NCBI GenBank assembly: GCA_041659405.1
Contig: JBAZYK010000003.1
Location: 90,001-122,000, forward strand
DNA: 32,000 nt
Direction: 5' to 3'
Source: Candidatus Altimarinota bacterium
GTDB taxonomy: Bacteria; Patescibacteriota; Gracilibacteria; UBA1369
Shown here: piece after piece, positions 6,963-28,804 of the stretch
Layout: each line of letters starts with the position of its first letter
How positions within the stretch are numbered: position 1 is the first letter of the stretch
Position numbers and translations under genes: made by a program
The notes under the pieces: generated by a model
Databases searched by the model: none
What the model was told of the DNA's origin: nothing
What the model saw: the letters and a program-made list of their open reading frames with translations, nothing else

Positions 6963-7637
6963 CTATAAATCCACACCATATAATTTTCGATATTCCTTAA
7001 TTTTCTCAAATTTTTCATTATCGATATACACCGTTCCATCAAGCTCTTTGTCATACAAATAAGAAACGATTTCTTCGATGGAAACAATCGAATAAACCTT
7101 GATACCAAACTCATCTTTCAATTCCTGCACTGCGCTTTTTTCACCCTGGCCCTTTTCCAAACGATCAATCGCAATCAAAACACCGGTAATTTCCGGATTT
7201 CCATGTTGCTTCAAAAGCTCGATACATCCGCGCAAAGCCGTTCCCGCAGTCATCACATCATCCACAATCACCAATTTGGAATCTTTGGTAATTGGCGCAC
7301 CAACAATCAAGCCACCTTCTCCATGATCTTTGGCTTCCTTGCGATTAAAACCATAGGCCACATTAATGCCGAACCGTTCATACAAAGACATGCAAACCGC
7401 CACGCTCAAAGGAATTCCCTTATAGGCAGGCCCAAAAACCACATCGTAATCTTTAAGATAACCGCGCAAAGCCGCTGCATAAAAAGCACCCAGTTGCGTG
7501 ATGAGTTCACCGGTATAAAACTGTCCAAGATTCAAGAAATATGGGCACTTTCGGCCGCTCTTAAGCGTAAAATCCCCAAACTTAAGAGTATTTGATTTGA
7601 CCAAAAATTTTATAAAATCTTCTTTATATTGTTGCAT
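6963..7637 (-). CDS. pyrE: orotate phosphoribosyltransferase
   Basis: 224 aa. Has the PRPP-binding motif LVIVDDVMTAGTA and FGPAYKGIPL. Confidence 0.92.
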   Translation of the reverse strand: MQQYKEDFIKFLVKSNTLKFGDFTLKSGRKCPYFLNLGQFYTGELITQLGAFYAAALRGYLKDYDVVFGPAYKGIPLSVAVCMSLYERFGINVAYGFNRKEAKDHGEGGLIVGAPITKDSKLVIVDDVMTAGTALRGCIELLKQHGNPEITGVLIAIDRLEKGQGEKSAVQELKDEFGIKVYSIVSIEEIVSYLYDKELDGTVYIDNEKFEKIKEYRKLYGVDL

Positions 7638-7704
7638 AGCGAAAACAATATAAGAACTTCAGCAGAAAAACACAATCTTTTTAGCTTCGAACATTATTTT
7701 TTGA

Positions 7705-8022
7705 TTACTTGCCGTGCCCCATACACGCACGCATATCAAAAACCTTAACTTCGATTTTAAAATTTTTATTTATTTTATCACTGGCTGTTTCCAATTCATA
7801 ATCAAGCTGAAGATTAAGCCAAAACTTAGCTGAATTGCCGAAATAACGACTCAAACGCAAAGCGGTATCAGGGGTTATCGATCGCTTTTTAAGAATTATC
7901 TCATTAATACGACGAGGGGGCACACTTATATCTTTAGCCAAACGATATTGGCTAATATTTAGCGGTTTTAAAAATTCCTTTTCTAAAATTTCGCCTGGAT
8001 GAATTGGTTTAAGTTTTTTCAT
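7705..8022 (-). CDS. higA: HigA-type antitoxin (XRE-family HTH)
   Basis: The N-terminus IHPGEILEKEFLKPLNISQYRLAKDISVPPRRINEIILKKRSITPDTALRLSRYFGNSAKFWLNLQ is a classic HigA/VapI pattern. It starts 2 nt after the higB stop. Confidence 0.85.
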   Translation of the reverse strand: MKKLKPIHPGEILEKEFLKPLNISQYRLAKDISVPPRRINEIILKKRSITPDTALRLSRYFGNSAKFWLNLQLDYELETASDKINKNFKIEVKVFDMRACMGHGK

Positions 8023-8024
8023 AT

Positions 8025-8306
8025 TTAATGATAATTTACAATTTCCACTTCATAAGCATTATTTTGTGACCAGTAAAAGCAAATCCTCCATTTTCTATTA
8101 ATTCTTATACTATACTGGCCTTTCCGCTCTGCTACTAACATTTCAAGATGATTTGAAGGCGGAACCCGCAAATCATTAATGTTTTCGGCCCTATGGAGCA
8201 TTCTCAATTTACGAAATGCTACCCTTTGAAGACTGGCAACAAAATTCTTTGCATATTCTCGATTGAAAAGCTTTGCTGCCTCCTTATTTTTAAAACTTTT
8301 GATCAT
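8025..8306 (-). CDS. higB: HigB-type toxin (RelE/ParE superfamily, plasmid maintenance system killer)
   Basis: Has IKSFKNKEAAKLF...LRMLHRAENINDLRVPPSNHLEML...YSIRINRKWRICF. The start is placed at ATG 8306 because the predicted promoter/operator lies inside the longer ORF-track version (8333). Confidence 0.8.
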   Translation of the reverse strand: MIKSFKNKEAAKLFNREYAKNFVASLQRVAFRKLRMLHRAENINDLRVPPSNHLEMLVAERKGQYSIRINRKWRICFYWSQNNAYEVEIVNYH

Positions 8307-8310
8307 AACA

Positions 8311-8339
8311 ATATTAACGATGTACGTTAACATTGTAAA
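8311..8339 (-). promoter_or_regulatory. higBA promoter with embedded inverted-repeat operator
   Basis: On the minus strand: TTTACA (8339..8334), 17 nt, TAATAT (8316..8311). The inverted repeat TTAACG-N5-CGTTAA (8314-8330) sits between and over the hexamers. Confidence 0.5.
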
Positions 8340-8381: not shown

Positions 8382-9215
8382 CTAAAATTTCTGGATTTTC
8401 CCCACCAAATCGCGGTGATATTTGCCAAATTCGGTAATTTTTCGAGCTTTTGCATTATTCACAACCGGGCCGCTTTTGCACATTCTTTCGCCGGTAGGAT
8501 CCACACAACACTGACCACAAACCCCAAAACCACACTTCATATAACGCTCGATTGAAACCTGCGCCGGTATTTTAGCGGCAAAACACATGTCGGAAATTCG
8601 CTTCATCATCACCTCCGGACCGCAAGTATAAACACAGCTTATGCGCGAACCTTTTTTCGCTTTATGCTCCTTTATCAACCTCTCCAAAATCATCGTGTTG
8701 TAGCCCTTTAAGCCCACAGAACCATCATCCGTCGCAATGAACAATTTCACATTTTTCAGTTTTTTGATTCGATCGATGTAGAGCAAATGTTCTTTACTGC
8801 GCGCCCCAATCACAAAATCGACCTTACAACCGGCCTTCACCGCCGCAACAGTTAAGTTATACAAAGGCGCAGCTCCATATCCGCCACCCATCATCACCAA
8901 GTGTTGACCTTTCTTAAAAGCACCACCACCCGGCCCGGTAAAATGAGTTCCATAAGGCCCGCGAACGCCCACCAAATCCCCTACTTTCAAAGTGTGCATT
9001 TTCTTGGAAAAATTCCCAACCGCAAACATGGTCACCCAAAATTCTTTGCCGTTATCAAACGCGATACTCATCGGCTTCTCATCCACACGCGGAATCCACA
9101 AATTCACAAACTGCCCGGGTTTTGAATTCAAAGCATGCTCAAACACAAAAGTTTTCACAAACGGCGTTTCAGTGATGATTTTTTTAATCGGAATTGCTTT
9201 TGGAATGTCGAACAT
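8382..9215 (-). CDS. pyrK: dihydroorotate dehydrogenase (class 1B) electron-transfer subunit PyrK
   Basis: FAD/NAD-binding-like body plus the C-terminal 2Fe-2S Cys cluster CGFGVCGQCCV...MCKSGP. ATG 9215 is chosen; the track start at 9278 would overlap pyrD by 53 nt. Confidence 0.85.
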   Translation of the reverse strand: MFDIPKAIPIKKIITETPFVKTFVFEHALNSKPGQFVNLWIPRVDEKPMSIAFDNGKEFWVTMFAVGNFSKKMHTLKVGDLVGVRGPYGTHFTGPGGGAFKKGQHLVMMGGGYGAAPLYNLTVAAVKAGCKVDFVIGARSKEHLLYIDRIKKLKNVKLFIATDDGSVGLKGYNTMILERLIKEHKAKKGSRISCVYTCGPEVMMKRISDMCFAAKIPAQVSIERYMKCGFGVCGQCCVDPTGERMCKSGPVVNNAKARKITEFGKYHRDLVGKIQKF

Positions 9216-9225
9216 AAATTGAACA

Positions 9226-10179
9226 TTAATTATAACCCTTAAACTTATCAGAATATCCGCTATCGTGAGCCGTTCCACGGATTTTGCCCAAGTCTTTTAT
9301 TCCATGCGCTTTCCCCCATTTTTTCATTTCTTCCGCAATCAGCTTGAAACAAATAATATCGCGATAATAAACCGCGGTTCCAACGCCCACCAGCGTAGCA
9401 CCGGCCATAATCATTTCCAGCGCATCTTCACCGGTTAAAACCCCGCCGGTACCAATAATCGGAGTTTTTGGGACAGCCTTATGAATATCGTAAACAGCTT
9501 TAATCGCAATCGGTTTGATCGCCGGACCGCTGACACCTCCCACTTTATTCGCCAAAATCGGCTCACGAGTTTCCAGATCAATCAGCATTCCCGGACCAAC
9601 CGTATTGATTGCCGTGATTCCATCCGCGCCCGCATCCACAACCGCTTTCGCGATCTCCGCAATATTCATTACATTTGGAGAAAGTTTGATCGTAATTGGG
9701 ATTTTAGTTCTTCTGCGAACCGCCGCAGTCACCGCCGCAGCATCAACTCTTGAACAAGAAAACGGTTTCCCAAACTCATCTTCCACATTCGGACAAGAAA
9801 TATTCACTTCAATAATATCTGGATGCAAAGCGTCAACCAGTGCAGCCACTTCCGCAAAATCCTCAATTCGGGATTCAACGATATTGGCAATGAGCGGAGC
9901 CGGTTTATTTTTCATATACTCACCAATTTCAATATAAGCTTTTTCGATTCCCGCATCCGGCAAACCGACCGCGTTCAACATAAAATGATCATTCGCGATA
10001 ATAACCGGATTTGGATGCCCCAAATGTCCCTGTCGCCAAATGGACTTGGTTGTAACACCACCCGCGCCGCCCGTCTTCACCACGTTTCTAAGACTCGCGC
10101 CGGTCACACCCAAAACACCCGACGCCAAAACCAACGGATTCTTGAATTTCACGCCGCAAAAAATTGTTTCCAGATTCAT
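9226..10179 (-). CDS. pyrD: dihydroorotate dehydrogenase catalytic subunit, class 1B
   Basis: 317 aa with no N-terminal extension. Has FKNPLVLASG, NISCPN (catalytic Cys), GGVSGPAIKPIA and IIGTGGV. Immediately upstream of pyrK. Confidence 0.9.
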   Translation of the reverse strand: MNLETIFCGVKFKNPLVLASGVLGVTGASLRNVVKTGGAGGVTTKSIWRQGHLGHPNPVIIANDHFMLNAVGLPDAGIEKAYIEIGEYMKNKPAPLIANIVESRIEDFAEVAALVDALHPDIIEVNISCPNVEDEFGKPFSCSRVDAAAVTAAVRRRTKIPITIKLSPNVMNIAEIAKAVVDAGADGITAINTVGPGMLIDLETREPILANKVGGVSGPAIKPIAIKAVYDIHKAVPKTPIIGTGGVLTGEDALEMIMAGATLVGVGTAVYYRDIICFKLIAEEMKKWGKAHGIKDLGKIRGTAHDSGYSDKFKGYN

Positions 10180-10279: not shown

Positions 10280-11101
10280 TCACTTCAACAACTTAGCCTC
10301 TGTTGACGGCCTCACGATCGATTCCATTTGGTATATCGCAATTTCATTTAATCTGATGAGCCTTTGCGATTGAGACAGTTTTTGCATAATAAATTCGGCA
10401 TTCAAACTTTCCAGATTGGAAAGAACCACAAGTTGTTCCGCACTGGCATAATCGCGAATATTCCCCTCCTGTTTTGGATTTTGCTCACGCCATTCTTTGG
10501 CTGTAGTATTAAACAAAGCCTTATTTAGAACATCAGCTTCATTCGCATAAATATTTTTAATTTCATTTGGATTAATTTTTTGGGGAATTAAGTTTTCTTT
10601 TATTGAATCTGTATGAATTTTATAATTTATTTTGGCAAGATTTCTTTTGAGATCCCAATCAAGGCCATTTAGCTTATTTTCTTGATCCTTGAGCCGCTGA
10701 AACTCTTTGATGAGATATAATTTAAATTCAGGACTTAACCAGGAACCAAACTCAAAAGCGATATCTTTATGCGCAAAAGTGCCACCTCCATAACGACCGG
10801 ATTTGGAAAAAATACCGATAGCATTGGTTTGTGATATCCATTTTCGAGGTGTTAAAGAAAAACTATTTAAACCAGACTGCATTTTAAAGGTATCGAATTC
10901 GATACCTTTAAAATTTGGATTATGTAACTGTTCCCAAATCCCCAAGAACTCTACTGCATTACGCCCGCGCATCCACTGATAAATCAAAATATCGTCACCA
11001 AAAGGTTTAACCATATCAGTCAGCGAAATAAAATCCTGCTCGTTTCTTTGAATTAAATTTATTTCCGTACCTTTCACATTAAGTTTGAATTGCTTGGCCA
11101 T
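10280..11101 (-). CDS. KilA-N domain DNA-binding protein
   Basis: The N-terminal half (ISLTDM...WMRGRNAVEFLGIWEQLHNPNF...GRYGGGTFAHKDIAFEFGSWLSPEFKLYLIKEFQRLK) matches the conserved KilA-N family pattern known from phage and mobile elements. Confidence 0.8.
   Translation of the reverse strand: MAKQFKLNVKGTEINLIQRNEQDFISLTDMVKPFGDDILIYQWMRGRNAVEFLGIWEQLHNPNFKGIEFDTFKMQSGLNSFSLTPRKWISQTNAIGIFSKSGRYGGGTFAHKDIAFEFGSWLSPEFKLYLIKEFQRLKDQENKLNGLDWDLKRNLAKINYKIHTDSIKENLIPQKINPNEIKNIYANEADVLNKALFNTTAKEWREQNPKQEGNIRDYASAEQLVVLSNLESLNAEFIMQKLSQSQRLIRLNEIAIYQMESIVRPSTEAKLLK
10881..10914. repeat. 34-bp perfect palindrome (family member 2) inside the KilA-N coding sequence
   Basis: ATTTTAAAGGTATCGAATTCGATACCTTTAAAAT equals its own reverse complement, checked base by base. 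It encodes FKGIEFDTFKM. Confidence 0.95.
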
Positions 11102-11197
11102 ACAAATTGATTAACTTATATGAGCCAGCATAGAAGAAAAAGATTAAGGATTTCTAAACAGATTCTGAAATAAAGATTAAATTTGGAATTGGTCGAA

Positions 11198-11233
11198 GCG
11201 GCCCGGAAATCTTATAAGGAAGTCCGGAGCCGC
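11198..11233 (-). other. 11-bp-stem hairpin between the GC-island ORF and the KilA-N gene
   Basis: 11198-11208 pairs with 11223-11233. The single non-Watson-Crick pair is U:G on the minus-strand RNA but C:A on the plus strand. Confidence 0.5.
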
Positions 11234-11369
11234 AACGCCTTGTTCAGGCGATTGCACCGCCCTTAGCCAAAGCCAAGGAGATGAAATCAAATAATATGAA
11301 AATGAGAGATTTGTGCCACTACCCAGGCACGCGGGTTAGGAGGTTAACTGCAAATTGTTAGGGGCGCAG

Positions 11370-11411
11370 CCCCGGAGCGACGAATGGAACAAGTCCACCG
11401 TCGCCCCGGGG
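11370..11411 (-). terminator. 13-bp GC-rich hairpin 13 nt downstream of the island ORF stop (no U tract)
   Basis: 11370-11382 pairs with 11399-11411. The one odd pair is G:U on the minus strand and A:C on the plus strand. A second small hairpin, GGGGC-UGC-GCCCC, sits at 11361-11373. Confidence 0.35.
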
Positions 11412-11424
11412 AGCGCGAAGGCCG

Positions 11425-11871
11425 TCAGGCCGCGACGAACATCTGCGCGACGGGATTGCCGTTGTTGTAGCCGAGGAGCGCCGGAAAATCCGCCGCTCCA
11501 ACCAACACGACCTTCCCGTTACCCTTCGCCACCATGCGCTCGATGTTACCACCCCGCGCCCGGGAGACGATGTGCACGCTGCCGGTCGCCTCCACGCCGA
11601 ACTGGTACGACCCCGTCTGTCCGGAGGTCACCAAGGCGTCCAAGAGAAGCCCCGCCTGCTCGTCGTTGAGAAGGCGATTCGAGACGACGGAGACCTTGTC
11701 GGAAGTGACGATGACGCGATCGAAGTCGACGCCGCCGGAAGGCCACCATTCACCGAACGTCTGGCCGACCCTGAGCGTCGAGACGTCGTCTCCAGCGAGC
11801 CTCAGGAACAAGACCTCCTCCATCTCGTTCAGATTGGTAGCCACGAGCGCACAAAATTCCTGGAACGTCAT
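11425..11871 (-). CDS. small hypothetical protein (148 aa, MTFQEFCALVATNLNEMEEV...) encoded in the GC-rich island
   Basis: It is the only frame in the island with a normal amino-acid composition. 23 of the first 30 codons end in G/C. GGAG (11881..11878) lies 6 nt upstream of ATG 11871. The other five frames give Arg/Pro/Cys-rich strings. Confidence 0.6.
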   Translation of the reverse strand: MTFQEFCALVATNLNEMEEVLFLRLAGDDVSTLRVGQTFGEWWPSGGVDFDRVIVTSDKVSVVSNRLLNDEQAGLLLDALVTSGQTGSYQFGVEATGSVHIVSRARGGNIERMVAKGNGKVVLVGAADFPALLGYNNGNPVAQMFVAA

Positions 11872-12242
11872 GAAAAACTCCACCACCCGCGCACCGAAGT
11901 GCCGGGCAAAATGAGCATACCCTCAATCGCGCCAGGCGCAAACCGAGGGCTAAAAACAAACACCTATTCAATGAGTCACGATCGCCTTGGGTAAAACCCG
12001 CAGCAACCGGCAACTCCCAAAGGTTCTTTCACCTCCTTTCGAAGGTTAAAATACTAAACCTGTGAGAGCAGCGAATCACAAAAGCAACGACGACCCTTAC
12101 CGCCCTTGCTTTGGCCATTCACTGCGCCCACCAGCCAGTACACAGAACCAAAAATCTCTCAATTTTCAAAGAACAAAGCAATCTGTAGGCTTACGGCCAT
12201 GCACTCTTTTCAAAAGAAAGCAGGGGCACAAAAAACGCACAG
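11872..12242 (-). promoter_or_regulatory. long (~370 nt) structured 5' leader of the island ORF
   Basis: Has a cUUCGg-capped hairpin (11886-11906), a nested hairpin (11920-11949), and a mutually exclusive pairing choice around an AAAGGAGGUGA motif (12019-12045). No ORF is credible here. Confidence 0.4.
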
Positions 12243-12248: not shown

Positions 12249-12277
12249 ACAGTATCATGCAAGTACGCAAATGTCAA
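12249..12277 (-). promoter_or_regulatory. sigma70-type promoter with consensus -35 and extended -10
   Basis: On the minus strand: TTGACA (12277..12272), 17 nt, then TGaTACTGT (-10 hexamer 12254..12249). Promoters upstream of carA and the 957-aa gene have the same architecture. Confidence 0.5.
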
Positions 12278-12485
12278 CACGGCCAAGCTGCCACCACCAA
12301 AATTAAGCTAATGTTAGCCACAAACCAACACTAAAAGCCCTCATAACCACCTCCCCACAAGTTTTGAACATACTTTGAAACATCCTGTCGGAAAACATTA
12401 CGACAATGTTCATTTTACACAAAACAAAGCCAACCCAGAGGAAACTTAGCAGCAAGTTCTAATTCGTACATAAAAAAAACAAATT

Positions 12486-13922
12486 TTATCCAACAAATTC
12501 CACCTCTTTGCCCGGCCATTTTCCAAATTTATCGCGCCATTCGTACATCAATTCACCGCCGACAAAAGTCATCACCGGAAATCCCTGCAAAACCCAGCCA
12601 TGGAAAGGCGACCAATCAACTTTTGTCCATAAATAATTATGGCAAATGCGCTCTTTTAAAGCCATATCCACAACCGCAAAATCGGCATCATAACCGGCTT
12701 CAATTGCGCCCTTCCCCTTAATTCCAAACAAACGCGCCGGATTAGCCGAACAAAGTTCCACAACTTTTTCCAAACTTAAAACGCCTTCATTCACCGCATT
12801 CAATAATAGCGGCAACATGGTTTGCACGCCCGGAATTCCACTTGGCGCCTGTTCATACGGCAACTTTTTTTCATCCAAAGTATGAGGCGCGTGATCCGTA
12901 GCGATCATATCCACTGTACCGTCTTTTACCGCTTCCCAAAGCGCAACCTGGTCCTGCACGCCGCGCAGTGGCGGATTAACTTTCACCAGATTTCCATATT
13001 TTTCATAATCCTGATCAGACAAAAACAAATGATGCGGAGTAACTTCCACACTCACATTTTGCGCAAGCGCACGCGCCCCACCATCCTTAAACTTGCGGAT
13101 ACTATCAAGTTCCAAAGCCGAAGAAACATGACAAATATGAACTCGAGTATCATATTTTTTAGCCAAATGTAAAACCTCTTTCACGGCATCATGAGCGCAC
13201 TCCGCTGCGCGAATTTTGGAATGTACCGCTGCATCGGCATGCGCAAGCACACCTGCCCCCACCCCACCATGTTCAACCAAATATTTTTGAGTATGTTCCT
13301 GAATGCAACTTTGCAGCTCGGCATGAATGGCCAAAAGATGGGAATTTTCAGACTCACCCGCTGACCCATGAGTTCCCGAATTTTCTTCCATGAATTTTTC
13401 CAGATCCGCCTTTTGATCAAGCAGCAAATTCCCGGTTGAACTCCCCATAAAAATTTTCACACCGGCAATATTTTTCAGTTTTTTGATTTCCTCGAGATTC
13501 GTTTTGCCATCTTTAGACCTAGTCGCACCCACATAAAAACCATAATTGACCAAAGCCTGCTTGGCCACCAATTTGCGCTTTTCCGCCAAAGTTTTTTCAT
13601 CCACAGTTGGCGGATTGGTATTTGGCATATCCAAAACAGTAGTCACACCACCAGCCAGCGCCGCCTTTGAACCGGTAATCCAATCCTCTTTTTCAGGATT
13701 GCCCGGAGTCCTAAAATGCACATGTACATCGATCAATCCCGGCAAAAGAAACTTTCCATCAAGATCAATCGTTTCAATCTTCTGATTTTCTAAAACCGAC
13801 TGAAACTTAGCCGACTTCCCGCGTTTAACTTCTTTAATTTTGCCATTCGAAACCAAAACCGACCCATCAAAAATTTCTTTTGGAGTAACGATTTGCGCGT
13901 TGATAAGGGCAAAAGTCTTCAT
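12486..13922 (-). CDS. pyrC: dihydroorotase
   Basis: 478 aa. Has DVHVHFRTPG (HxH metal site), VCHVSS-like ICHVSS, EVTPHHL and ATDHAPH. Confidence 0.9.
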   Translation of the reverse strand: MKTFALINAQIVTPKEIFDGSVLVSNGKIKEVKRGKSAKFQSVLENQKIETIDLDGKFLLPGLIDVHVHFRTPGNPEKEDWITGSKAALAGGVTTVLDMPNTNPPTVDEKTLAEKRKLVAKQALVNYGFYVGATRSKDGKTNLEEIKKLKNIAGVKIFMGSSTGNLLLDQKADLEKFMEENSGTHGSAGESENSHLLAIHAELQSCIQEHTQKYLVEHGGVGAGVLAHADAAVHSKIRAAECAHDAVKEVLHLAKKYDTRVHICHVSSALELDSIRKFKDGGARALAQNVSVEVTPHHLFLSDQDYEKYGNLVKVNPPLRGVQDQVALWEAVKDGTVDMIATDHAPHTLDEKKLPYEQAPSGIPGVQTMLPLLLNAVNEGVLSLEKVVELCSANPARLFGIKGKGAIEAGYDADFAVVDMALKERICHNYLWTKVDWSPFHGWVLQGFPVMTFVGGELMYEWRDKFGKWPGKEVEFVG

Positions 13923-14554: not shown

Positions 14555-15733
14555 ATGAAAAATCTGCTAATCAAAACCAGAAACGGCTTCATCAAATTCG
14601 GCTATAAAACATTTCTAAAACCGATTTTCTTTAAACTGGACCCCGAAGACGTTCACGATCACATGACCAAAATCGGAAAAGCACTTGGTAGATTTGGAAT
14701 TGGCAGATCCATTACCAAAGCCATGTTTTATTATTCCGATCCTTCGCTTGGCCAATATATTCACGGTATTAATTTTGCAAATCCGGTTGGTTTAGCGGCG
14801 GGATTCGACAAAAACGCCGAACTCACCCGGATTTTGCCGGAAGTTGGATTTGGCTTTGAAGAAGTTGGATCCATCACCGGAGAACATTGCGCCGGCAACC
14901 CAAAACCACGTCTTTGGCGCCTAAAAAAGACTCAGGGTTTAGTGGTTTATTACGGCCTAAAAAACGACGGCTGCGAAAAAATTTCCGCGCGTTTGGCGGA
15001 TCAAATCAAAAAACATCCATTCAAGTTTCCGGTTGGCATCAGTATTGCCAAGACTAACAATGAGCAAACTTGTGAAACCGAAGCCGGAATTAAAGATTAC
15101 GTAAAAGCTTTCAAGCATTTCACTCACATCGGCGACTACATCACAATCAATATCAGCTGCCCAAATGCGTTTGGCGGAGAACCTTTTACCGAACCGCACA
15201 AACTGGAAGCACTTCTTGCCGAAACCGACAAAATCCCATACAACAAACCGATTTTCCTAAAAATTTCGCCTGACCTAAACAAGGAGCAACTCGACCAAAT
15301 TTTACACATTATCAGCAAACACAAAGTAGACGGTCTGCTTTGTGCCAACCTGACCAAAAATCGAGAAAATGCCAAAATCCATAAAGAAGATAAAATGCCG
15401 GCAGTTGGCGGCATAAGCGGCAAAGCCCAGGGAGAACTTTCCAATGAACAAATCCGCTATGTTTATAAAAAGTGGAAAAAGATGATGTCCGATGGCACCA
15501 ATAGCCACAAACGCGACCTTACCATCATCGGCTGCGGGGGAATTTTTACGGCCGAAGACGCTTACAAAAAAATCAAAGCCGGCGCTTCACTTTTGCAAAT
15601 GATCACCGGTATGATTTTTGAGGGACCACAAGCAATCAGCAGTATCAACATGGGCCTGGTTAAACTCCTAAAAAAAGACGGCTACAAAAATATCAGCGAA
15701 GCCGTTGGCAAAGAGCACGACCTCAAAGATTAA
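14555..15733 (+). CDS. pyrD: dihydroorotate dehydrogenase, class-2-like architecture but with Cys at the catalytic-base position
   Basis: 392 aa. Has an N-terminal extension with FFKLDPEDVH, plus NPVGLAAGFDKNAE, GNPKPRLWRL and IIGCGGI, co-linear with E. coli PyrD as I recall it. The active-site loop reads INISCPN (TGC at 15158-15160), not NISSPN. Confidence 0.88.
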   Translation: MKNLLIKTRNGFIKFGYKTFLKPIFFKLDPEDVHDHMTKIGKALGRFGIGRSITKAMFYYSDPSLGQYIHGINFANPVGLAAGFDKNAELTRILPEVGFGFEEVGSITGEHCAGNPKPRLWRLKKTQGLVVYYGLKNDGCEKISARLADQIKKHPFKFPVGISIAKTNNEQTCETEAGIKDYVKAFKHFTHIGDYITINISCPNAFGGEPFTEPHKLEALLAETDKIPYNKPIFLKISPDLNKEQLDQILHIISKHKVDGLLCANLTKNRENAKIHKEDKMPAVGGISGKAQGELSNEQIRYVYKKWKKMMSDGTNSHKRDLTIIGCGGIFTAEDAYKKIKAGASLLQMITGMIFEGPQAISSINMGLVKLLKKDGYKNISEAVGKEHDLKD

Positions 15734-21863: not shown

Positions 21864-21880
21864 TTAACCACCGCCCCCCC
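21864..21880. repeat. TTAACCACC + C-run motif (copy 1)
   Basis: TTAACCACCGCCCCCCC lies between the stop of the SLH/beta-propeller gene and the start of the GNAT gene. The same 9-mer plus a C-run recurs at 25762-25782. Confidence 0.7.
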
Positions 21881-24504
21881 TACAACGGCATCGGCTTTGG
21901 CAAATCACCGCCCAAATCCTGCAAAAGCAGACTTCCAACATCATGCAGATCACTCAAAGCGTTGGCTTTTACCATTGTCCCAGAAACCGTATACAGATTT
22001 TCGCCGATGTACAGCAAACGTCTAACAATATCGTCCGGATGCGCGATTTTACCCTGCAGTTTAAAGCCGTCCGTCAGCCCAACCTTATAAACATAAGCCC
22101 CCTGGAAGGCCAAACTGGAGCTATCGCCGGTGCCTTCATAAACCGAAATGGGGAAAGCCAAAAGCCCCTTCGCCTTATCAAACAACAAAGCCCTGTGATC
22201 ACTCAAAAGCTCGCTATCGGTCCCACGCGCGCCAATCACCTGCGTAAACATTTCTTTTGGCTGATTCACATTCGTCACATCAAAAAGTCCCAGTTTCATG
22301 CCCTGCACAGCGGTATAATAAACCGCACTTGGACTATGAACTTTATCCGCGTCGATACTTTCATCCACCATTTTTCCAAAACCAATCAAATGAGTTGCGT
22401 CATAAGGATGCAAATAATTGCTGTAACCCGGAATCTTCAATTCTCCCAAAATTTTTGGCGCAGTTGGAACCGACAAATCAATCACAAACAGCGGATCAAT
22501 CTGCTTGAAAGTCACAAGATAACCACGATTTCCCACAAATCGCGCCGAAAAAATACTTTCCCCCGGAGCGATATTGGAAACCGCACCAATTTGCTTCATC
22601 GCAGAATTCAAAACAAAAACATTGTTGCTGGTTTTTGGCTCCATTGGAGCAATCGGCGCAATCATCACACCGCCCGAAACACTAACATCAGTCGCCGGTG
22701 CCATCATTGGCAAAGGACCAGCATTATATTCCGTTTGAGTCGTCGCAATTCGCACATTTCCACTCGCCTCTTCATCCATACTAAACTGGTTCAAAACCGT
22801 TCCTTTTACGCTACCCGAAGCCACAAATTTGATCGTGCCATCGCCAAGCGCAAATTTATACAAACCGGTCATTTGCGTTCCACCATTATAATAGCCGCCA
22901 CGCCAGTCTGTTGCCGCCACATACAAATTGCCGGTTGAAGCATAAACATTATCCACACTGCCAACCACTACCTCACGCTGAACGTCTTTTGTCGCACTAT
23001 CAAGCGGAATCGCAGCCGTAATCAAGAAATTATAAGAAGAAGGTTTTGGGAAAATTCTGATCCCCGAACAAGGCACAATCAATTCCTCTTTCCCATTTTT
23101 TGAATCAGTCATTTTTGGCAAGAAACTTTCCGGATTAAGTTCACTTTCCGTACGTTCCTGCTGATAATAATATGGAAAAGAAGGATAGTCGTTCATCACC
23201 ATGTAAACGGTAGAACCAATACGACGAGAAGTATTGTAATTGCCGTCAAATTCCACAGTTCGCCCAATCACCGGTTTAGAATGATCCGTAACATCAACAA
23301 TCACCACTTTTGTACGATTTGAAGAGCGATAATACGGCATCATTGAAGGCGCCATTATGCCCTGATCAACCGGCTCAATGGTCTTCGTCATCGGATACAT
23401 CATCCCACCGGAACTTCCAACAATCACCAGATTATTTCCGGAAAGATACATTTCCTTTGGATAAAAATTGCCGGAACTATCCACAACAATAGAAGCCAAT
23501 TCCTTCATTGGACTTGCCGGATAAGCATCTACAATACGAACTGTTTGACCTTTAACCGTGTAAATATACTTACCATCATTTTTCACGATATCGGCCTCAT
23601 CCACACCTACAACCTGGACATTGGTTGTGGAATGGTCAACAGAACCAACCGTTGAGCCGGAAGAATCCGCAGGCGCCGGAGCCGCAGTTGGAGCCATTTC
23701 CGCACTCTTCACTGCATCTTGTAACATCATCGGAACCCCGTAGCCACCACCATAAATTCCACCACTGCCCTTCATCCCATCCGCATATCTATTTTGAAAA
23801 TCCACGCAAGAAGACGCTGTTACCAACCCATCACCATTAATTTCCGCAAAATTGCGTGAAGCTTTATCGGTAACGTTATCATGAATTCTCCAAACCATTT
23901 CCGCAGTTTCGCCACGTTTCACATTTTGATCAAAATATTCAACAGTTAAAGGAATATCTTTTTTTGCCGCCAAAGCATCCACAAATTGTTTAAACCAAAG
24001 TTTGGCATCTGGCTGACCTTTGCTCAAATTGTAAGCATTTGTAATGATTTTTGAAGCCTCCGAAAATTTAATTTTATCGGCAGGATTAAAAACTTTGCCG
24101 GTACCAACTCCACTAACAATCCCCTTGGCCTTCGCCGCGCAAATATAAGGCGCAAACCATTCGGTATGAACATCATCAAAACAATTTTGCATGGCAGGAT
24201 TTTGAAGAGCCGCAGCCAAATCAGCAGGCGTAGGACCAACAATCGGCGCCATCAAAAGTTTCATAAATTCCGCGCGATTCATTTCCTGATCAGGTTTATA
24301 AGTTCCATCCGCATAACCCTGAATTATCCCATCAGTCTGCAATTTTTGAATAGCTGTTGAGTCAGTTCGATCAACAGTCACATCAGAAAAAATTGAAGGG
24401 GCGGTCTGCGCCTTAACCAAAGCAATTTTCATCGCCGGCTGAATACCAAAAGACGAAATCACCAATGAAAACAACACCAATAACGGAAGAAAAGTTTTTT
24501 TCAT
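21880..24504 (-). CDS. secreted SLH-domain protein with C-terminal beta-propeller domain
   Basis: Signal-peptide-like start MKKTFLPLLVLFSLVISSFG. Has two SLH-like units (FSDVTVDRTDSTAIQKLQTDGIIQGYADGTYKPDQEMNRAEFMKLLM and CFDDVHTEWFAPYICAAKAKGIVSG). The C-terminal two-thirds resembles the secreted beta-propeller family (VGVDEADIVKNDGKYIYTV). ATG 24504 is preferred over 24609. Confidence 0.8.
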   Translation of the reverse strand: MKKTFLPLLVLFSLVISSFGIQPAMKIALVKAQTAPSIFSDVTVDRTDSTAIQKLQTDGIIQGYADGTYKPDQEMNRAEFMKLLMAPIVGPTPADLAAALQNPAMQNCFDDVHTEWFAPYICAAKAKGIVSGVGTGKVFNPADKIKFSEASKIITNAYNLSKGQPDAKLWFKQFVDALAAKKDIPLTVEYFDQNVKRGETAEMVWRIHDNVTDKASRNFAEINGDGLVTASSCVDFQNRYADGMKGSGGIYGGGYGVPMMLQDAVKSAEMAPTAAPAPADSSGSTVGSVDHSTTNVQVVGVDEADIVKNDGKYIYTVKGQTVRIVDAYPASPMKELASIVVDSSGNFYPKEMYLSGNNLVIVGSSGGMMYPMTKTIEPVDQGIMAPSMMPYYRSSNRTKVVIVDVTDHSKPVIGRTVEFDGNYNTSRRIGSTVYMVMNDYPSFPYYYQQERTESELNPESFLPKMTDSKNGKEELIVPCSGIRIFPKPSSYNFLITAAIPLDSATKDVQREVVVGSVDNVYASTGNLYVAATDWRGGYYNGGTQMTGLYKFALGDGTIKFVASGSVKGTVLNQFSMDEEASGNVRIATTQTEYNAGPLPMMAPATDVSVSGGVMIAPIAPMEPKTSNNVFVLNSAMKQIGAVSNIAPGESIFSARFVGNRGYLVTFKQIDPLFVIDLSVPTAPKILGELKIPGYSNYLHPYDATHLIGFGKMVDESIDADKVHSPSAVYYTAVQGMKLGLFDVTNVNQPKEMFTQVIGARGTDSELLSDHRALLFDKAKGLLAFPISVYEGTGDSSSLAFQGAYVYKVGLTDGFKLQGKIAHPDDIVRRLLYIGENLYTVSGTMVKANALSDLHDVGSLLLQDLGGDLPKPMPL

Positions 24505-24617
24505 AAATAAAATTAAGAATGCACTCAGTATAATACGCCAAATGAAAAATATTACACCAAAACTTCTCATTTCCAGAGGCCATCCTTTAGAGCTCACCCC
24601 CAATTTCAAGTTCCCTC

Positions 24618-25782: not shown

Positions 25783-27933
25783 ATGAAAAAAACAATCAGC
25801 ATGGTAATTATTTTATTAGGAATATTTACCTCAACCGTAGTTGTTCAAGCCCAAAACACCAGCATTGACGCCACCAGGGCCATCCCTAAAAATGTGGATA
25901 TCTATTTTTCTTTGGACACCACCGTTGCCAATCCACTCAGCAGCTTCATGCCTCAAATTGGTGAAGAAATGACTTTCATGATGACCGAAACCGGCGCATC
26001 AGCTACACAAACGCAAGCCATCAATACTCTCAAACCAAAACTGCTCAACAATCACTACGGAGTCGCTTTAAGAATGAATAAAACCGAGACCGCTCCTGCG
26101 GCGGCGAGTGATGCAGCCACCTCGGAAAGCTTTGTCACTTTGCATCTTTCCAGCACCGACTTTACCACGTTAACTACGGCTCTCGGCAATCCTCAAACAG
26201 AAACTTATAATGGCACAACCATCTATTATAACGATATCGCTTCCGTTGCCCTTTTGGGTAGCGACCTGGTGATCATGAATACCAATAAAGCAGGTTTGCA
26301 CGAAATGATTGACGATTATACTTCCGGCAACAATCTTCAAAACAATGCCAACTTCAGTGCAACCAAAGCCAAATTTTTACCATCCAGTTTTGCTGAATTA
26401 TACTTAAATCCGGCCACCACAGATCAACTCATGACCACCCAGTTTGGCATGGACGACACCGCTACTGTCAAAAACATTCTTCAAACTTTAACCAGTATGG
26501 GAGTTTCGGCGGCTCAAGGAAACAATAATATCCAAATCAGCTACTTCCTTAAAAGCGACAGTGCTAAACTGGCAGCTCTTAATTTGGCGCTAAACAATAA
26601 CTTTATCCCGGCAATTTATAAAAACATCGTTACCAAAAACATCCTTTTATACGTCGAACAAAACAATCTCCAAAAAACGATCCAGGACATTTTAACAATG
26701 GCTGGCGAATCGACCCAATTAGACAGCATTTCCACCGAGTTTCAAACCAACACCGGCTTAAATCTGCAAAATGACGTCTTGGCCGTATTAAACAATAAAT
26801 TTGCAATTTCCATCCACTCACAAGATAGCCAATATCCGGCCATCAGTCTGATTTTTGATGTTAAAAACAACCTCACCAAAGCTAACAACATCGTTACCAA
26901 ATTAAAAGATTACGCCTCCAAACAACCCGAAACTACCGTAACTACAACCACAATCAACGGCGCAACCTTTTACCAAGTTGGGGACACTTCAACTAAAATT
27001 TCCATGGGCGTCAGTGCCGATGGTTACCTTGTTTTAACAAACGGCAACGTCACGGATGTTCTTAACTCCAACGGAGCTTTATCCACAGACTCAACTTTCA
27101 CCGGCACAATGGGCCAACTCAATGATTCTTCCATCAATCAAATCAACTTCATCAATATCGACAATCTCCACTCCATAGCCAGTGGGCTTTTAAACATGAT
27201 GACAAGCGATCAAGATGGCAAAGATGCCATCAACGGCCTGCTTATACCATGGCACAGCATTGGCGTAAAAAGCAATAACAATAGCGACTCTCTTTGGGGC
27301 ACGATCAGTTTGAGTGTTGATCTAAACGGCTTTGCTCAATATCCGGCGCTAATCACCAAATTAATGACCAGCGAACTCGTTAATCCACCAAGACATTTCT
27401 GTGATGTAAAATCTTCGGATTGGTTCACTACACACGTCAACTCTTTAAGCAAAAAAGGCTACATCACAGGTTACTCCGATGGCTGTTTTCATCCGGGAAG
27501 CAACATTTCCCGTGCGGAATTTGTAACTCTACTCATGAAGGCAATGCCTTCTTTAACCTACCACGACGATCGCGCCAAACAATTTAAAGACGTTGCCAAC
27601 GGTGCTTGGTATAAAGATTATGTTGATTTGGCAGTCGAAAACGGGATCATTAAGGGATATGCCGACAATAGTTTCCATCCAAACGCTCCAATCGCCCGCG
27701 CTGAAGCAATTCAAATTTTGATGAACGTGGCAGCACAATTTCACCTGCTTGAGGATGCCAATTTAGCAACAGTATCTTTCCAAGACCTCAAAAAGTCCGA
27801 CTGGTACTTTAATGCAGTCCGGGATGCTCTAACACTCTCAATCATTTCCCCTTCCACCCGCTTCAATCCACGCTCCAGCTTGAATCGAGCCGAAGCAGCC
27901 AAGATTATCGACCTCTTCTTGCAACATCTTTAA
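25783..27933 (+). CDS. secreted protein with three C-terminal SLH domains
   Basis: Signal peptide MKKTISMVIILLGIFTSTVVVQA. Has three SLH-like units near the C-terminus (WFTTHVNSLSKKGYITGYSDGCFHPGSNISRAEFVTLLM, WYKDYVDLAVENGIIKGYADNSFHPNAPIARAEAIQILM and WYFNAVRDALTL...LNRAEAAKIIDLF). Confidence 0.8.
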   Translation: MKKTISMVIILLGIFTSTVVVQAQNTSIDATRAIPKNVDIYFSLDTTVANPLSSFMPQIGEEMTFMMTETGASATQTQAINTLKPKLLNNHYGVALRMNKTETAPAAASDAATSESFVTLHLSSTDFTTLTTALGNPQTETYNGTTIYYNDIASVALLGSDLVIMNTNKAGLHEMIDDYTSGNNLQNNANFSATKAKFLPSSFAELYLNPATTDQLMTTQFGMDDTATVKNILQTLTSMGVSAAQGNNNIQISYFLKSDSAKLAALNLALNNNFIPAIYKNIVTKNILLYVEQNNLQKTIQDILTMAGESTQLDSISTEFQTNTGLNLQNDVLAVLNNKFAISIHSQDSQYPAISLIFDVKNNLTKANNIVTKLKDYASKQPETTVTTTTINGATFYQVGDTSTKISMGVSADGYLVLTNGNVTDVLNSNGALSTDSTFTGTMGQLNDSSINQINFINIDNLHSIASGLLNMMTSDQDGKDAINGLLIPWHSIGVKSNNNSDSLWGTISLSVDLNGFAQYPALITKLMTSELVNPPRHFCDVKSSDWFTTHVNSLSKKGYITGYSDGCFHPGSNISRAEFVTLLMKAMPSLTYHDDRAKQFKDVANGAWYKDYVDLAVENGIIKGYADNSFHPNAPIARAEAIQILMNVAAQFHLLEDANLATVSFQDLKKSDWYFNAVRDALTLSIISPSTRFNPRSSLNRAEAAKIIDLFLQHL

Positions 27934-27997: not shown

Positions 27998-28045
27998 TGG
28001 GTTCTCAAGTTAGAAAAATAAGTGAGAACTCAAGGTTTTTATTTT
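27998..28045 (+). terminator. probable terminator of the SLH gene
   Basis: On the plus strand, UGGGUUCUCA (27998-28007) pairs with UGAGAACUCA (28023-28032) with one G:U pair, followed by UUUUUAUUUU (28036-28045). Confidence 0.45.
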
Positions 28046-28473
28046 GGAATTTGTTTTTGTTTATAGCTGACTAAGCGTTTTTGTCTGCTGAGCTTTGGCT
28101 GAGGTTTTCAGTCCGGCCAGGGACCGTCCGTTGAGTGTGTTCTACAGATCACCGAAGTGATAAGACAGAGAACACCGGACCGCGGGAAGCGGTAAGAGCG
28201 TTAGTCATTCGCTTTACCAGCACTTAGCAAGGACAGAGAGAAGGTGAAAGTTCTAGGCACACTCGAGTATTAATGAGCATTTAGTTTGTGCAATTTTTTA
28301 GTAGCACACTCGCTAACACTCGTGTGTGGTGACGAAAGTTTCTAGGGCCGGCCTCCCAATCCCTTTTTTATAAGCGCACTTTCGTGCGTGGTGGCGGCAA
28401 ATTCATCCATTCACCTTCCTTTCTTTCTTTGCTATAGCTTTTTTACCGAGTTTTTAAAGACCTTTTTGTTTTT

Positions 28474-28500
28474 GAGGCGACCCGCCTTCTTTTTGTTTAT
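28474..28500 (+). terminator. weak plus-strand terminator-like hairpin (conflicts with the minus-strand RNA model)
   Basis: AGGCG-ACC-CGCCU (28475-28487) is followed by UCUUUUUGUUUAUUUUU. The whole local plus strand is T-rich, so the tail may be coincidental. Confidence 0.3.
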
Positions 28501-28522
28501 TTTTACTTTTTGTTTTCAAATC

Positions 28523-28550
28523 ATTGTATCAAATAAAAGATTTAACGCAA
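28523..28550 (-). promoter_or_regulatory. sigma70-type promoter with extended -10, reading into the ORF-free region
   Basis: On the minus strand: TTGCGT (28550..28545), 16 nt, then TGaTACAAT (-10 at 28528..28523). Confidence 0.45.
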
Positions 28551-28687
28551 ATTATTATCATATACATATCTGAAGATATTTTCTAATTCAAAAACGCGGC
28601 CGATTTCATCACTTACAGACTCAGTACACTTTATATTTCATATTTTAGTAAAAATTTAGAAAACGTTAATAAACACAGTGTATTTTC

Positions 28688-28711
28688 AAAGGAGTCGAAT
28701 TCGACCCCTTT
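28688..28711. repeat. 24-bp GAATTC-centred palindrome (family member 3)
   Basis: AAAGGAGTCGAATTCGACCCCTTT has one A/C mismatch pair. It shares the core TCGAATTCGA and AAAGG/CCTTT arms with member 2. Confidence 0.8.
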
Positions 28712-28723
28712 AAGTTTTTCAGA

Positions 28724-28755: not shown

Positions 28756-28804
28756 GGCAGGCAGGTTTGAATAGCTATAAAACCTCCCAACAACAAGAAA
28801 TATC

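Follow-up and report, generated by a model that had tools for sequence, protein, structure and literature searches.

How does an abruptly GC-rich island with a small orphan ORF come to lie in the genome of a Peribacteria-type CPR bacterium, and what does such an island encode? In the window, by which we mean the whole 32-kb stretch of DNA that was analyzed (from a contig of 159 kb), positions 11190-12010 have a GC content of 59.4%, as compared to 42.1% for the window itself. When composition was followed in segments of 300 nt, the island peaked at 0.66 against a window mean of 0.422 (sd 0.053), and it is the sole stretch above 0.55 GC within the 32 kb. The counts made by hand in the initial annotation were all exact, namely 44/60 G+C for 11401-11460, 13/60 for 10561-10620, and 23 of the first 30 codons ending in G/C. 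The bounds given there, 11190-12010, mark an island that is real, but the unit defined by composition and homology is wider, reaching from ~12277 to 11180.

On the minus strand, 12277-11180 forms a single transcription unit, autonomous and accessory, in a Peribacteria-type CPR bacterium. As had been proposed, it is compositionally foreign and self-contained, with, in this order, its own TTGACA/extended -10 promoter, a long structured leader (5' UTR of ~370 nt), an ORF of 148 aa, a structured trailer (3' UTR of 245 nt) and a terminal GC hairpin. Inverted or direct repeats at the island termini were limited to short AT-rich matches, judged to be due to chance. The features of the unit and its neighbor are as follows:

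12249..12277, minus strand: promoter, with -35 TTGACA at 12277-12272, a 17-nt spacer and an extended -10 TGaTACTGT at 12257-12249
11872..12242, minus strand: structured 5' UTR of ~371 nt, 49.6% GC and rich in G+U, from folding against shuffles
12110..12179, minus strand: leader core block, containing AAAATTGAGAG, conserved in both island lineages
12062..12131, minus strand: long leader hairpin of ~30 bp with a variable tip (inverted repeat I1)
11878..11884, minus strand: SD-like GGTGGAG, with GGAG at 11881-11878, 6 nt upstream of the ATG
11425..11871, minus strand: ORF of 148 aa, from ATG at 11871 to TGA at 11427-11425, of an orphan hypervariable family with high-GC codon usage
11180..11424, minus strand: structured 3' UTR (trailer) of 245 nt, 54.7% GC, MFE -103 kcal/mol, z -6.4
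11364..11416, minus strand: GC-rich hairpin of 18-19 bp directly after the stop codon, from the trailer fold
11191..11239, minus strand: terminal GC hairpin, from the trailer fold, without a canonical U-tract
10280..11101, minus strand: KilA-N gene, not part of the unit (Pfam KilA-N, 2e-18; PADLOC PDC-S22, 1.4e-126)

Homologous islands were found in the pyrC-pyrD interval of three other Peribacteria-type contigs, here called L001, L002 and L014. In L002 the island has the opposite orientation, with a 111-aa ORF on one side and pyrD on the other, while the one in L001 is followed by a different ORF, the contig ending 167 nt later. Homology between the window and L001 stops at 11180, and the module similarity between the window and L002 begins at the promoter. 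Contig L016, with a pyrD that is 80% identical, has no island, and the unit is thus accessory; it occurs in lineages with a pyrC dS >1. Apart from the island, the pyr cluster also contains a HigB/HigA pair and the KilA-N/PDC-S22 gene. None of the 80 loci in a pyrD-anchored metagenome scan had the island, and exact look-ups of the pyrC and pyrD sequences returned the same strain only. An exact 27-mer, 100% conserved between the window and L001, had no matches in metagenome, viral and genome collections, from which the source contig itself is absent. Scanning of viral contigs with a degenerate leader-core pattern and a protein alignment also gave 0 matches, as did blastn and tblastn against phages and plasmids, and no description of such an island was found in the literature.

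The promoter was originally described as near-consensus. TTGACA and the extended -10 are indeed present, but the -10 hexamer matches at 3/6 positions only, which is why a simple promoter scanner misses it. At the homologous place, L002 has TTGACA-16-TGgTACAAT (11/12 with TG in a consensus scan), which the same scanner does call. A consensus scan, in itself weak evidence, found no plus-strand promoter inside the island of either the window or L002. We infer a transcription start site near 12242, and the previously stated leader length of ~370 nt follows from the promoter position. The hairpins of the leader were rightly called strand-specific: on the minus strand its MFE is -150 kcal/mol, with a z of -5.6, as against -87 kcal/mol and a z of -1.6 for the plus strand. 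The window and L001 leaders are 8.8% different, with 4 compensatory and 5 one-sided changes in the predicted stems, and no stem pairs are broken except where a hairpin tip is missing in L001; the allele set consists of four alleles in two lineages, and the covariation evidence is thin. The leader core block is 100% identical between the window and L001 and constitutes the only strong DNA match between the window and L002 in ORF orientation (71% over 70 nt, E 2e-6). The long leader hairpin is kept both in L001, with a tip that is 14 nt shorter, and in L002, where 2 of the changes are compensatory and 4 one-sided. A covariance model of the core and long hairpin (R1) matched the three islands only, and no extra copies of the leader core were found with it in 227 kb.

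Just upstream of the start codon the leader fold contains another hairpin. The GGAG taken for a ribosome-binding site is present, and a purine-rich motif precedes the start also in L001 (GGAG) and in L002 and L014 (GAGGA), but a working site is unsupported, since the host lineage appears to use SD rarely if at all. In line with what had been noted before, none of ~19 host starts carries an SD motif, while one doubtful TTG start has GAGG. Together with the listing of Ca. Peribacter riflensis among the organisms lacking the CCUCC anti-SD (PMC10783764), this makes an SD function doubtful for the GGAG of the island.

The trailers of the window and L001 are 12.2% different, with 2 compensatory and 8 one-sided changes and 0 broken pairs. 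Over the UTR folds computed, the z-scores against shuffles were -5.6, -6.4, -5.8 and -5.7. In the hairpin after the stop codon, 5/5 substitutions relative to L001 keep the pairing, 4/5 of them through G-U, which points to an RNA on the minus strand. Both L002 and L014 have an analogous hairpin of other sequence after the stop codon. The terminal GC hairpin at 11191..11239 probably represents the 3' end or a terminator, and the L002 unit ends in an analogous hairpin followed by UUUGCU. Leader and trailer may furthermore be joined by a helix, whose predicted arms are:

12149..12168, minus strand: 5' arm of the leader-trailer helix, an inverted repeat with 11297-11315
11297..11315, minus strand: 3' arm (CACAAATCTCTCATTTT), single-stranded in the local trailer fold

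The duplex in the window has a computed energy of -19.8 kcal/mol, equalled by 9/500 shuffled trailers, and the equivalent pair in L002, of different sequence, reaches -22.1 (4/500 shuffles). Support for this predicted helix is modest, at ~p 0.01-0.04 per lineage. Duplex folding of the whole UTRs was uninformative, as everything pairs.

The ORF itself exists as annotated, with a GC content of.62/.42/.83 at the three codon positions, as compared to a GC3 of.42-.48 in host genes. In codon usage it resembles a typical high-GC genome (C3 > G3 >> T3 > A3); adenine makes up.04 of the third positions (range.03-.05) and is normal at positions 1 and 2. The other frames had been set aside as nonsense, and they do contain stops, but the shadow frame on the opposite strand is stop-free, as expected. 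The four alleles encode 145-153 aa, start and stop at homologous places, and can be aligned with all gaps in whole codons. Judged from the codon periodicity, the frame and length kept in four alleles and a dN below dS, the ORF is truly protein-coding. As a side observation, the NCBI table-25 annotation of the source MAG over-extends genes ending in TGA.

No match to the protein was found in Pfam, NCBIfam, PHROG, PADLOC or PDB, and it is thus an orphan, as first thought. None of the four alleles had a Pfam hit at E<=1 or E<=10, and PDB searches by sequence and by profile returned chance-level matches only. A suggested resemblance to Roadblock/LC7 (PF03259) was accordingly abandoned, as not even E<=10 gave a Pfam hit and PDB gave no match. 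An exhaustive HMMER scan of 1.84 billion representative proteins identified one full-length homolog (P0002, 45% identical, BLASTP 9e-38) and two repeat proteins, while word-index searches returned the cluster of the query, then P0002 and then P0008. The L002/P0008 alleles are collinear with the window ORF but barely detectable, the homology between window-type and L002-type ORFs being weak (hhalign E.066, BLASTP E.013). With phmmer, two Listeria-Bacteroides repeat (Flg_new-like) proteins were matched at E 1e-6 and 6e-4, summed over 6 repeats, and BLASTP aligned one Flg_new-like repeat to residues 11-47 (E 1e-4). The GxTFGxWW motif is missing from P0002, the closest homolog, and Pfam gave no hit; we regard the similarity to these repeat proteins as motif-level. 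No part of the ORF is repeated elsewhere in the 32-kb window, and no paralogue was found among the 1.84 billion representatives. The protein is soluble and net acidic (16 D+E vs 10 K+R), without a signal peptide. AlphaFold2 models were unusable, with a pLDDT of 37 from the single sequence and 35 from an alignment of three sequences.

Across two independent allele pairs, sequence differences amount to 4-12% in the UTRs and to 26-35% in the ORF, the per-site divergence of the ORF being 3-6x that of the UTRs. Transversions per site are 3-15x more frequent, at.15-.22 in the ORF, the flanks and pyrC having.014-.052. When the window is compared with L001, the ORF has a dN of.49 and a dS of.84, the pyrC dS being.35, and both allele pairs have a dN lower than dS. 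The differences are spread over the whole length of the ORF and are greatest at codon position 3 (.46 and.31). The start and stop codons bound the divergence, which includes synonymous sites, and the UTRs evolve more slowly than the synonymous sites of pyrC. GC3 is.75-.92 across alleles, with L001 at.75. Identical ORFs were recovered from independent samples (the window, L012 and L013 share one, L014 and L015 another), which argues against ongoing mutagenesis, and no mosaics were seen among the four alleles.

Our preferred reading, to which we give slightly less than an even chance, is that of a stable, translationally gated mRNA for a fast-evolving conflict protein, with alleles swapped by recombination in the conserved UTRs. 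The core motif of the 5' UTR would pair with the single-stranded stretch of the 3' UTR, and this pairing, together with the hairpin before the start codon, would yield a long-lived mRNA with gated translation in a host that would initiate on unstructured, SD-less leaders. The product may be a soluble, slightly acidic specificity or conflict factor, e.g. a defense, immunity or addiction protein. Ancient and highly diverged alleles would be exchanged among strains through homologous recombination anchored in the conserved UTRs, and the high GC3 may come either from an origin in a high-GC gene pool or from a GC-biased process tied to recombination. A partner gene for the unit, be it a toxin, an antisense RNA or a recombinase, was not found.

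The strongest competing explanation, although an unlikely one, is an ordinary ORFan acquired laterally from a high-GC donor into a variable intergenic spot, with UTRs that are simply donor DNA and nothing special being maintained. A codon usage typical of high-GC genomes, down to the A3 of.03-.05, speaks in its favor, and high-GC Peribacteria do exist, e.g. Ca. Peribacter riflensis with 58.5% GC (PMC4736985). That the family searches assigned no function, and that L001 has drifted somewhat towards host composition (GC3.75), also fit. Such an ORFan is, however, difficult to reconcile with a GC3 of.83-.92 at a pyrC dS >1 and near-saturated ORF divergence, with UTRs slower than pyrC synonymous sites in which changes keep the pairing, and with a promoter and leader core conserved across lineages; nor is there a donor homolog among the 1.84 billion representative proteins.

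Rather improbable is a module resembling type I toxin-antitoxin systems such as hok, for addiction or abortive infection, in which the mRNA is kept inert by fold-back until it is processed or a labile repressor is lost. The strong promoter, the exceptionally structured GC-rich mRNA, the hairpin near the start codon and the predicted leader-trailer pairing in both lineages would all suit such a module, as would an accessory distribution beside other addiction and defense genes. The product, on the other hand, is soluble and 148-153 aa long, where a short hydrophobic peptide would be expected, the consensus scan of the window and L002 found no conserved antisense promoter or RNA, and the ORF had 0 PADLOC hits.

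Two further readings concern the confinement of divergence between start and stop codon. According to one, which we consider distinctly unlikely, the conserved structured UTRs are RNA or DNA recognition elements directing replacement or GC-biased rewriting of the start-to-stop segment, a previously undescribed CPR device. Repair templated by RNA would be one possible route and GC-biased conversion at a very hot recombination site another, and if true, a small cytoplasmic specificity protein would stay hypervariable while its expression signals remain fixed. The other is locally targeted hypermutation, DGR-like or otherwise mediated by RNA or a polymerase, with the UTR structures as recognition sites, and its chances are slim. 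DGRs are common in CPR bacteria, and a hairpin is required downstream of the DGR variable region. The GC hairpin just 3' of the variable part of the island resembles this required hairpin, and hypermutation would also fit a divergence that includes synonymous sites. Evidence against it comes from the lack of RT or recombinase Pfam matches among the window ORFs scanned (32 kb of the 159-kb contig) and of template-like ORF repeats in the 32-kb window, from third positions varying the most with normal adenines at positions 1 and 2, and from the identical ORFs of independent samples.

That the island is a structured non-coding RNA, the GC-rich core of which is stop-free by chance and the ORF spurious, has an even slimmer prospect. 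Long ORFs are found in all six frames here, the flanks are clearly structured RNA, and the RNA of the ORF folds somewhat better than shuffles (z -2.7). The.62/.42/.83 periodicity is nevertheless seen within the ORF only and keeps one frame through four alleles, and similarity at the protein level (9e-38), gaps in whole codons throughout and dN < dS all speak for translation, while conservation would be lowest in the very core supposed to be functional. Rfam, with its models for riboswitches, introns, OLE/GOLLD/ROOL/HEARO, tmRNA, RNase P and others, gave no hit at the gathering threshold in 32 kb, and relaxed searches of the window island (E<=10) and the L002 island (E<=5) returned only chance-level miRNA/sRNA hits far below the threshold.

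Scarcely credible by now is the foreign two-gene cassette of structured RNA, small protein and KilA-N that the initial annotation had proposed. The KilA-N domain of the downstream gene was confirmed (Pfam 2e-18), and in the window the two genes, both of them accessory, are adjacent on the same strand and ~320 nt apart. KilA-N is, however, absent from the contigs of L002 and of L014/L015 and does not follow the L001 island (where the contig ends 167 nt on), the islands of L001 and L002 having other neighbors, and the stretch of the window homologous to L001 extends no further than 11180, which leaves 79 nt to the KilA-N start. A common origin of the two genes is contradicted by their opposite composition, the KilA-N gene having a GC content of 35.5% and a GC3 of.33 vs.83 for the ORF, by its stand-alone match to PDC-S22, and by its phage-like nature, with 54% identity to proteins from satellite phages of Streptococcus and from Staphylococcus phage EW, Firmicute elements without such an island. 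A tblastn search with KilA-N matched the strain of the window only. The KilA-N gene is an unrelated neighbor of the unit.

Finally, despite the abrupt change in composition, an assembly chimera or GC-rich contamination, about which the initial annotation had been concerned, is next to impossible, since the island sequence is the same across three assemblies, the window matches contigs of the independent assemblies ENA ERZ27249449 and Logan SRR6484324 without a difference over 4.2 kb and 3.5 kb, both junctions included, and homologous islands occupy one locus in L001, L002 and L014. Records from JGI and NCBI are also among the cluster members.

Many small CPR genes cannot be assigned, and the gene of this island stands out by its unusually clean evolutionary signals: a conserved regulatory RNA, a coding part near-saturated in divergence, and foreign high-GC codon usage in an SD-less host of 42% GC. 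Should the pattern hold in more genomes, it would point to a new type of conflict or specificity locus in episymbiotic bacteria, to a bacterial example of strong local GC-biased recombination, or to an unknown gene-diversifying route. The island also offers a concrete case in which 5'-3' UTR pairing of a bacterial mRNA can be tested, and it illustrates that a sharp GC island in a low-GC MAG is not necessarily a misassembly.

Among known systems, the KilA-N proteins of PADLOC PDC-S22 and the BstA-like KilA-N proteins of abortive infection resemble only the neighbor gene at 10280-11101, which is unlinked to the island in the other genomes found and differs from it in composition and origin. Integron cassettes are similar as small ORFans with an immediate, imperfect hairpin and presence/absence polymorphism, but the island has its own promoter, a 370-nt leader and a single ORF. 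No integrase, attI site or cassette array was found in the window (0 integrase Pfam hits among the window ORFs scanned), and consistent RYYYAAC/GTTRRRY core sites were not seen, GTTRRRY occurring in the L002 trailer only and not in the window or L001. With DGR targets the island shares a variable coding region directly followed by a GC hairpin. It differs in that no RT, Avd or template repeat was found in the 32-kb window of the 159-kb contig, and in that the whole ORF varies, instead of a C-terminal variable region, with no adenine-specific pattern. Borrelia vlsE and Neisseria pilE are likewise GC-rich hypervariable coding segments with conserved flanks in an AT-rich genome, but these encode surface proteins and have arrays of silent donor cassettes, while the island has no paralogous copies, no signal peptide and identical sequences across samples.

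The likeness to hok/sok lies in an accessory single-gene unit with its own promoter, a very stable structured mRNA and 5'-3' pairing that would close the start region. Hok toxins are membrane peptides of ~50 aa with an antisense RNA gene, while the island product is soluble and 148-153 aa long, and the resemblance is architectural only. The staphylococcal agr specificity region, the comC pherotypes of streptococci and CdiI or polymorphic-toxin immunity genes differ in having partners (kinase, toxin or peptide), none of which was seen for the island, as well as ordinary composition and no long structured UTRs. What they have in common with the island is a deep and sharply bounded divergence in one short coding segment, adjacent DNA with ordinary strain-level divergence, and alleles that are stable within a strain.

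The window holds a pyrimidine-biosynthesis cluster (pyrB, carA, pyrC, two pyrD, pyrK, pyrE and pyrF) of a host that, by its pyrC relatives, is a Peribacteria/Peregrinibacteria-type CPR bacterium (Candidatus Gracilibacteria at NCBI). This cluster is broken up by small accessory genes: a HigB/HigA pair, a KilA-N gene, a GC-rich island and, farther along, a DNA methylase. Overall GC is 42.1% (300-nt windows: mean 0.422, sd 0.053), and 11200-12000 is the sole stretch above 0.55, peaking at 0.66-0.685. The hand counts of the initial annotation (44/60 and 13/60 G+C, and 23 of 30 codons ending in G or C) were reproduced exactly, and the composition jump that it described is genuine and sharp. Within the island, the 148-aa ORF 11425..11871 (-) has a GC1/2/3 of.62/.42/.83; GC3 is.42-.48 in neighbouring host genes and.33 in the KilA-N gene.

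The promoter, long leader and strand-specific hairpins earlier ascribed to the ORF were all recovered:

12277-12249 (-): promoter, with -35 TTGACA at 12277-12272, a 17-nt spacer and TGaTACTGT at 12257-12249
~12242-11872 (-): 5' UTR (leader), -150 kcal/mol, z -5.6
11424-11180 (-): 3' UTR (trailer), z -6.4

The strand opposite the leader folds to -87 kcal/mol (z -1.6). A corresponding GC island (0.60-0.67) lies between pyrC and pyrD on L002, a contig of a GTDB Peribacteria MAG with a 79% identical pyrC. Its 153-aa ORF (GC3.91) is served by an equivalently placed promoter (TTGACA, 16-nt spacer, TGgTACAAT; score 11/12 with TG), a shorter leader (z -5.8) and a trailer with z -5.7. Similarity between the window and L002 runs from the -35 box to the terminal hairpin, so that what the two have in common is exactly one transcription unit.

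Compared with L001, a 2.5-kb Logan contig with a homologous island, the predicted UTR stems show six compensatory double changes and 13 one-sided ones, mostly G-C to G-U, and no broken pairs outside one deleted hairpin tip. All five changes in the hairpin 3' of the stop codon keep pairing, four of them via G-U, which is evidence for an RNA on the minus strand. L002 retains a long leader hairpin of ~30 bp (12131-12062), in which two compensatory changes are seen. Conservation within the leader is highest in the core at 12179-12110 (100% identity between the window and L001, 71% to L002), which includes AAAATTGAGAG, complementary to trailer positions 11315-11297, single-stranded in the local fold. 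The predicted duplex has an energy of -19.8 kcal/mol for the window and -22.1 for L002, where the helix extensions differ in sequence, and 9/500 and 4/500 shuffled trailers, respectively, attained that energy. Such 5'-3' pairing is plausible but no more than moderately supported. The structured UTRs are under purifying selection, and the unit is conserved, autonomous and accessory.

As in the initial annotation, the ORF protein could not be placed in any family: searches of Pfam, NCBIfam, PHROGs, PADLOC and PDB gave no match. When 1.84 billion representatives were scanned exhaustively with HMMER, one genuine homolog emerged, P0002 (145 aa, 45% identity full-length, BLASTP 9e-38). Its gene is at the same locus as the window ORF, since it sits on L001 directly 3' of a pyrC with a 90% identical protein. 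Two ENA contigs, L014 and L015, carry P0008, a relative of the L002 ORF with 62% identity. Window-type and L002-type proteins are hardly alignable (BLASTP E.013, C-terminus; hhalign E.066, 113 collinear columns, 33% identity). Because ORF size, locus, promoter, leader core and overall architecture agree, we infer a single, very fast-evolving family. A speculative likeness to Roadblock/LC7 gained no support from the family searches or from AlphaFold2 models, which were unusable in two runs. Residues ~20-68 resemble Listeria-Bacteroides repeats at motif level; this likeness is not kept in P0002, and nothing here is based on it.

Per-site substitution differences between alleles, by region
Window vs L001, pyrC stop to -35 box: 11.0%
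Window vs L001, promoter and 5' UTR: 8.8%
Window vs L001, ORF: 34.8%
Window vs L001, trailer: 12.2%
Window vs L001, pyrC (all sites): 9.4%
L002 vs L014, 5' UTR: 9.5%
L002 vs L014, ORF: 25.8%
L002 vs L014, trailer: 4.2%
L002 vs L014, adjacent 111-aa gene (90 nt): 0%

The switch in divergence regime coincides with the ORF start and stop codons, and the two ORF pairs show.22 and.15 transversions per site vs.014-.052 in the surroundings. Since dS is higher in the ORF (.84) than in pyrC (.35; window vs L001), neither weakened constraint nor positive selection can account for the pattern if it acts at the protein level only. No silent copies or paralogues were found in the window or among 1.84 billion representative proteins. 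The most economical reading is that the ORF alleles would far predate the genomes around them and be swapped by recombination inside the conserved UTRs, as is typical where selection is diversifying or frequency-dependent. For the GC3 of.75-.92 maintained in a 42% GC host, the candidate causes are a high-GC gene pool (Peribacteria of 58.5% GC do exist; PMC4736985), selection for mRNA structure or stability, and GC-biased conversion at a recombination hot spot.

All ORF alleles carry GGAG or GAGGA 5' of the start codon, making the island ORF the only clear exception in the window, where none of ~19 host genes, bar one doubtful TTG start, has an SD motif within 25 nt of its start. These SD-less starts agree with a publication that lists Ca. 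Peribacter riflensis as lacking the CCUCC anti-SD (PMC10783764). The motif and its absence from host starts were thus correctly noted at the outset, but a working ribosome-binding site is doubtful on the same grounds; the motif may be a relic or serve another pairing.

Taken together, we tentatively propose, with a confidence somewhat short of even, that the mRNA would be long-lived, with its leader structures and leader-trailer helix gating translation of the ORF. The protein would act as a conflict or specificity factor, and its alleles would turn over by recombination anchored in the UTRs.

It is unlikely, though conceivable, that the ORF is a plain ORFan from a high-GC donor. A hok-like addiction module is improbable: the fold-back, known here from predicted pairing, offers an analogy for the possible working only, and as the unit has no short hydrophobic toxin and consensus scans of the window and L002 islands found no antisense promoter, no membership is claimed. 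Targeted hypermutation has still less in its favour, and its ongoing action on the ORF is unlikely because ORFs are identical across independent samples, third codon positions vary most and no adenine-specific signature was found in the ORF (A1 and A2 normal; A3.03-.05, as in any high-GC genome).

That the unit is a non-coding RNA with a spurious ORF is very improbable. Long ORFs do occur in other frames, as an expected by-product of GC richness, the only further stop-free frame being an opposite-strand shadow frame. Codon periodicity is, however, limited to ~11400-11900, dN is below dS in both allele pairs (.49/.84 for window vs L001;.28/.54 for L002 vs the P0008 allele), and protein-level gaps comprise whole codons only. 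By these signatures, 11425..11871 is a real gene of an orphan family and looks translated. Two NCBI records (MFA5829301.1 and MFA6343128.1; protein P0005) give a 175-aa product in which the TGA stop is read through as Gly (11344-11427 (-)), so the annotation of the MAG apparently used genetic code 25. With code 11, all genes of the window stay intact; several of them have TGA as their stop, the homologous stop in L002 is TAG, and code 11 fits better.

The two-gene cassette with KilA-N, proposed in the initial annotation, can scarcely be upheld. Among the island loci, KilA-N was found only in the window's own strain, a different ORF lies 3' of the L001 island (homology ends at window 11180), and L002, in which the entire unit is flipped with respect to pyrC and pyrD, has no KilA-N. 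The gene (10280-11101 (-), GC 35.5%) is a neighbour, not a partner, and as the two adjacent foreign genes show opposite compositional bias, the best interpretation is that each reached an insertion hot spot independently. In PADLOC, the KilA-N protein hits the single-gene candidate PDC-S22 (1.4e-126); it also matches phrog_2657. Across 97% of its length it shares 54% identity with proteins of Streptococcus satellite phage (Javan series), Staphylococcus phage EW and Mannheimia phage, which is remarkably high for a CPR protein compared with those of mobile elements of Firmicutes. A short NFKxxEFxxF motif occurs once in it (residues 63-73) and three times in the partial ORF 3' of the L001 island (2213-2457), with pairwise E of only.008-.075; L001 ends soon after. 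The Logan assembly of SRR6484324 breaks within the KilA-N gene.

An assembly chimera is practically discounted by two independently assembled contigs that agree exactly with the window through the island and its two junctions (ENA ERZ27249449, 50.7 kb, over 4.2 kb; Logan SRR6484324, 10.2 kb, over 3.5 kb), the 90% cluster of the protein having members from JGI, NCBI, ENA and Logan.

Among relatives, L016 (pyrD 80% identical) lacks the island and carries 4 kb of other genes. A 46-nt block 3' of pyrC (window 12346-12391 (-); L002 7950-7995 (+)) is 79% conserved, in pyrC orientation in both; as it adjoins the promoter end of the island in the window and the terminator end in L002, one of the inversion breakpoints lies here. 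In L002, a strongly acidic 111-aa ORF (7480-7815 (+); 27 D+E vs 15 K+R), without a match in Pfam or PADLOC, separates pyrC from the inverted island; its 3' end is 100% identical in L014 (907-996). A short hypervariable insert within the otherwise 90% identical pyrC (13200-13270 (-)) reads GGVGAGVLAHADAA in the window vs ETNLSAAGRNDP in L001, and differs again in L002. Of the window ORFs scanned, none was recognised as a reverse transcriptase, integrase or recombinase. Other features of the window are:

8025-8333 (-): HigB-like toxin, 102 aa (Pfam label from a precomputed table)
7705-8022 (-): HTH_3 antitoxin, 105 aa (Pfam label likewise)
9226-10179 (-), 8382-9278 (-): pyrD/pyrK pair, type 1B-like
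14555-15733 (+): DHO_dh gene, 392 aa
18402-21275 (+): 957-aa ORF, no Pfam or PADLOC match
21880-24609 (-), 25783-27933 (+): large SLH-domain proteins
29308-31188: N6/N4 DNA methylase

The toxin-antitoxin pair (7705-8333), inserted between pyrK and pyrE, is a further small accessory or addiction module, and the DHO_dh gene is a second dihydroorotate dehydrogenase, on the strand opposite to the pyrD/pyrK pair. The SLH-domain proteins adjoining the 957-aa ORF, one with a beta-propeller, are presumably cell-envelope proteins. The methylase lies in a stretch of lower GC (28000-32000; 0.36-0.38) with reversed GC skew and a 138-aa ORF without a Pfam match, which may be another foreign islet.

No comparable system was found in Rfam, protein family libraries, phage, plasmid and viral collections or literature searches. 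The general kind is already known, namely accessory ORFans or hypervariable allelic loci at genomic hot spots. We cannot match to any described system the combination of conserved structured UTRs with predicted 5'-3' pairing, start-to-stop hyperdivergence and persistently foreign codon usage in an SD-less CPR host. That the unit represents a new diversification or exchange mechanism is improbable.
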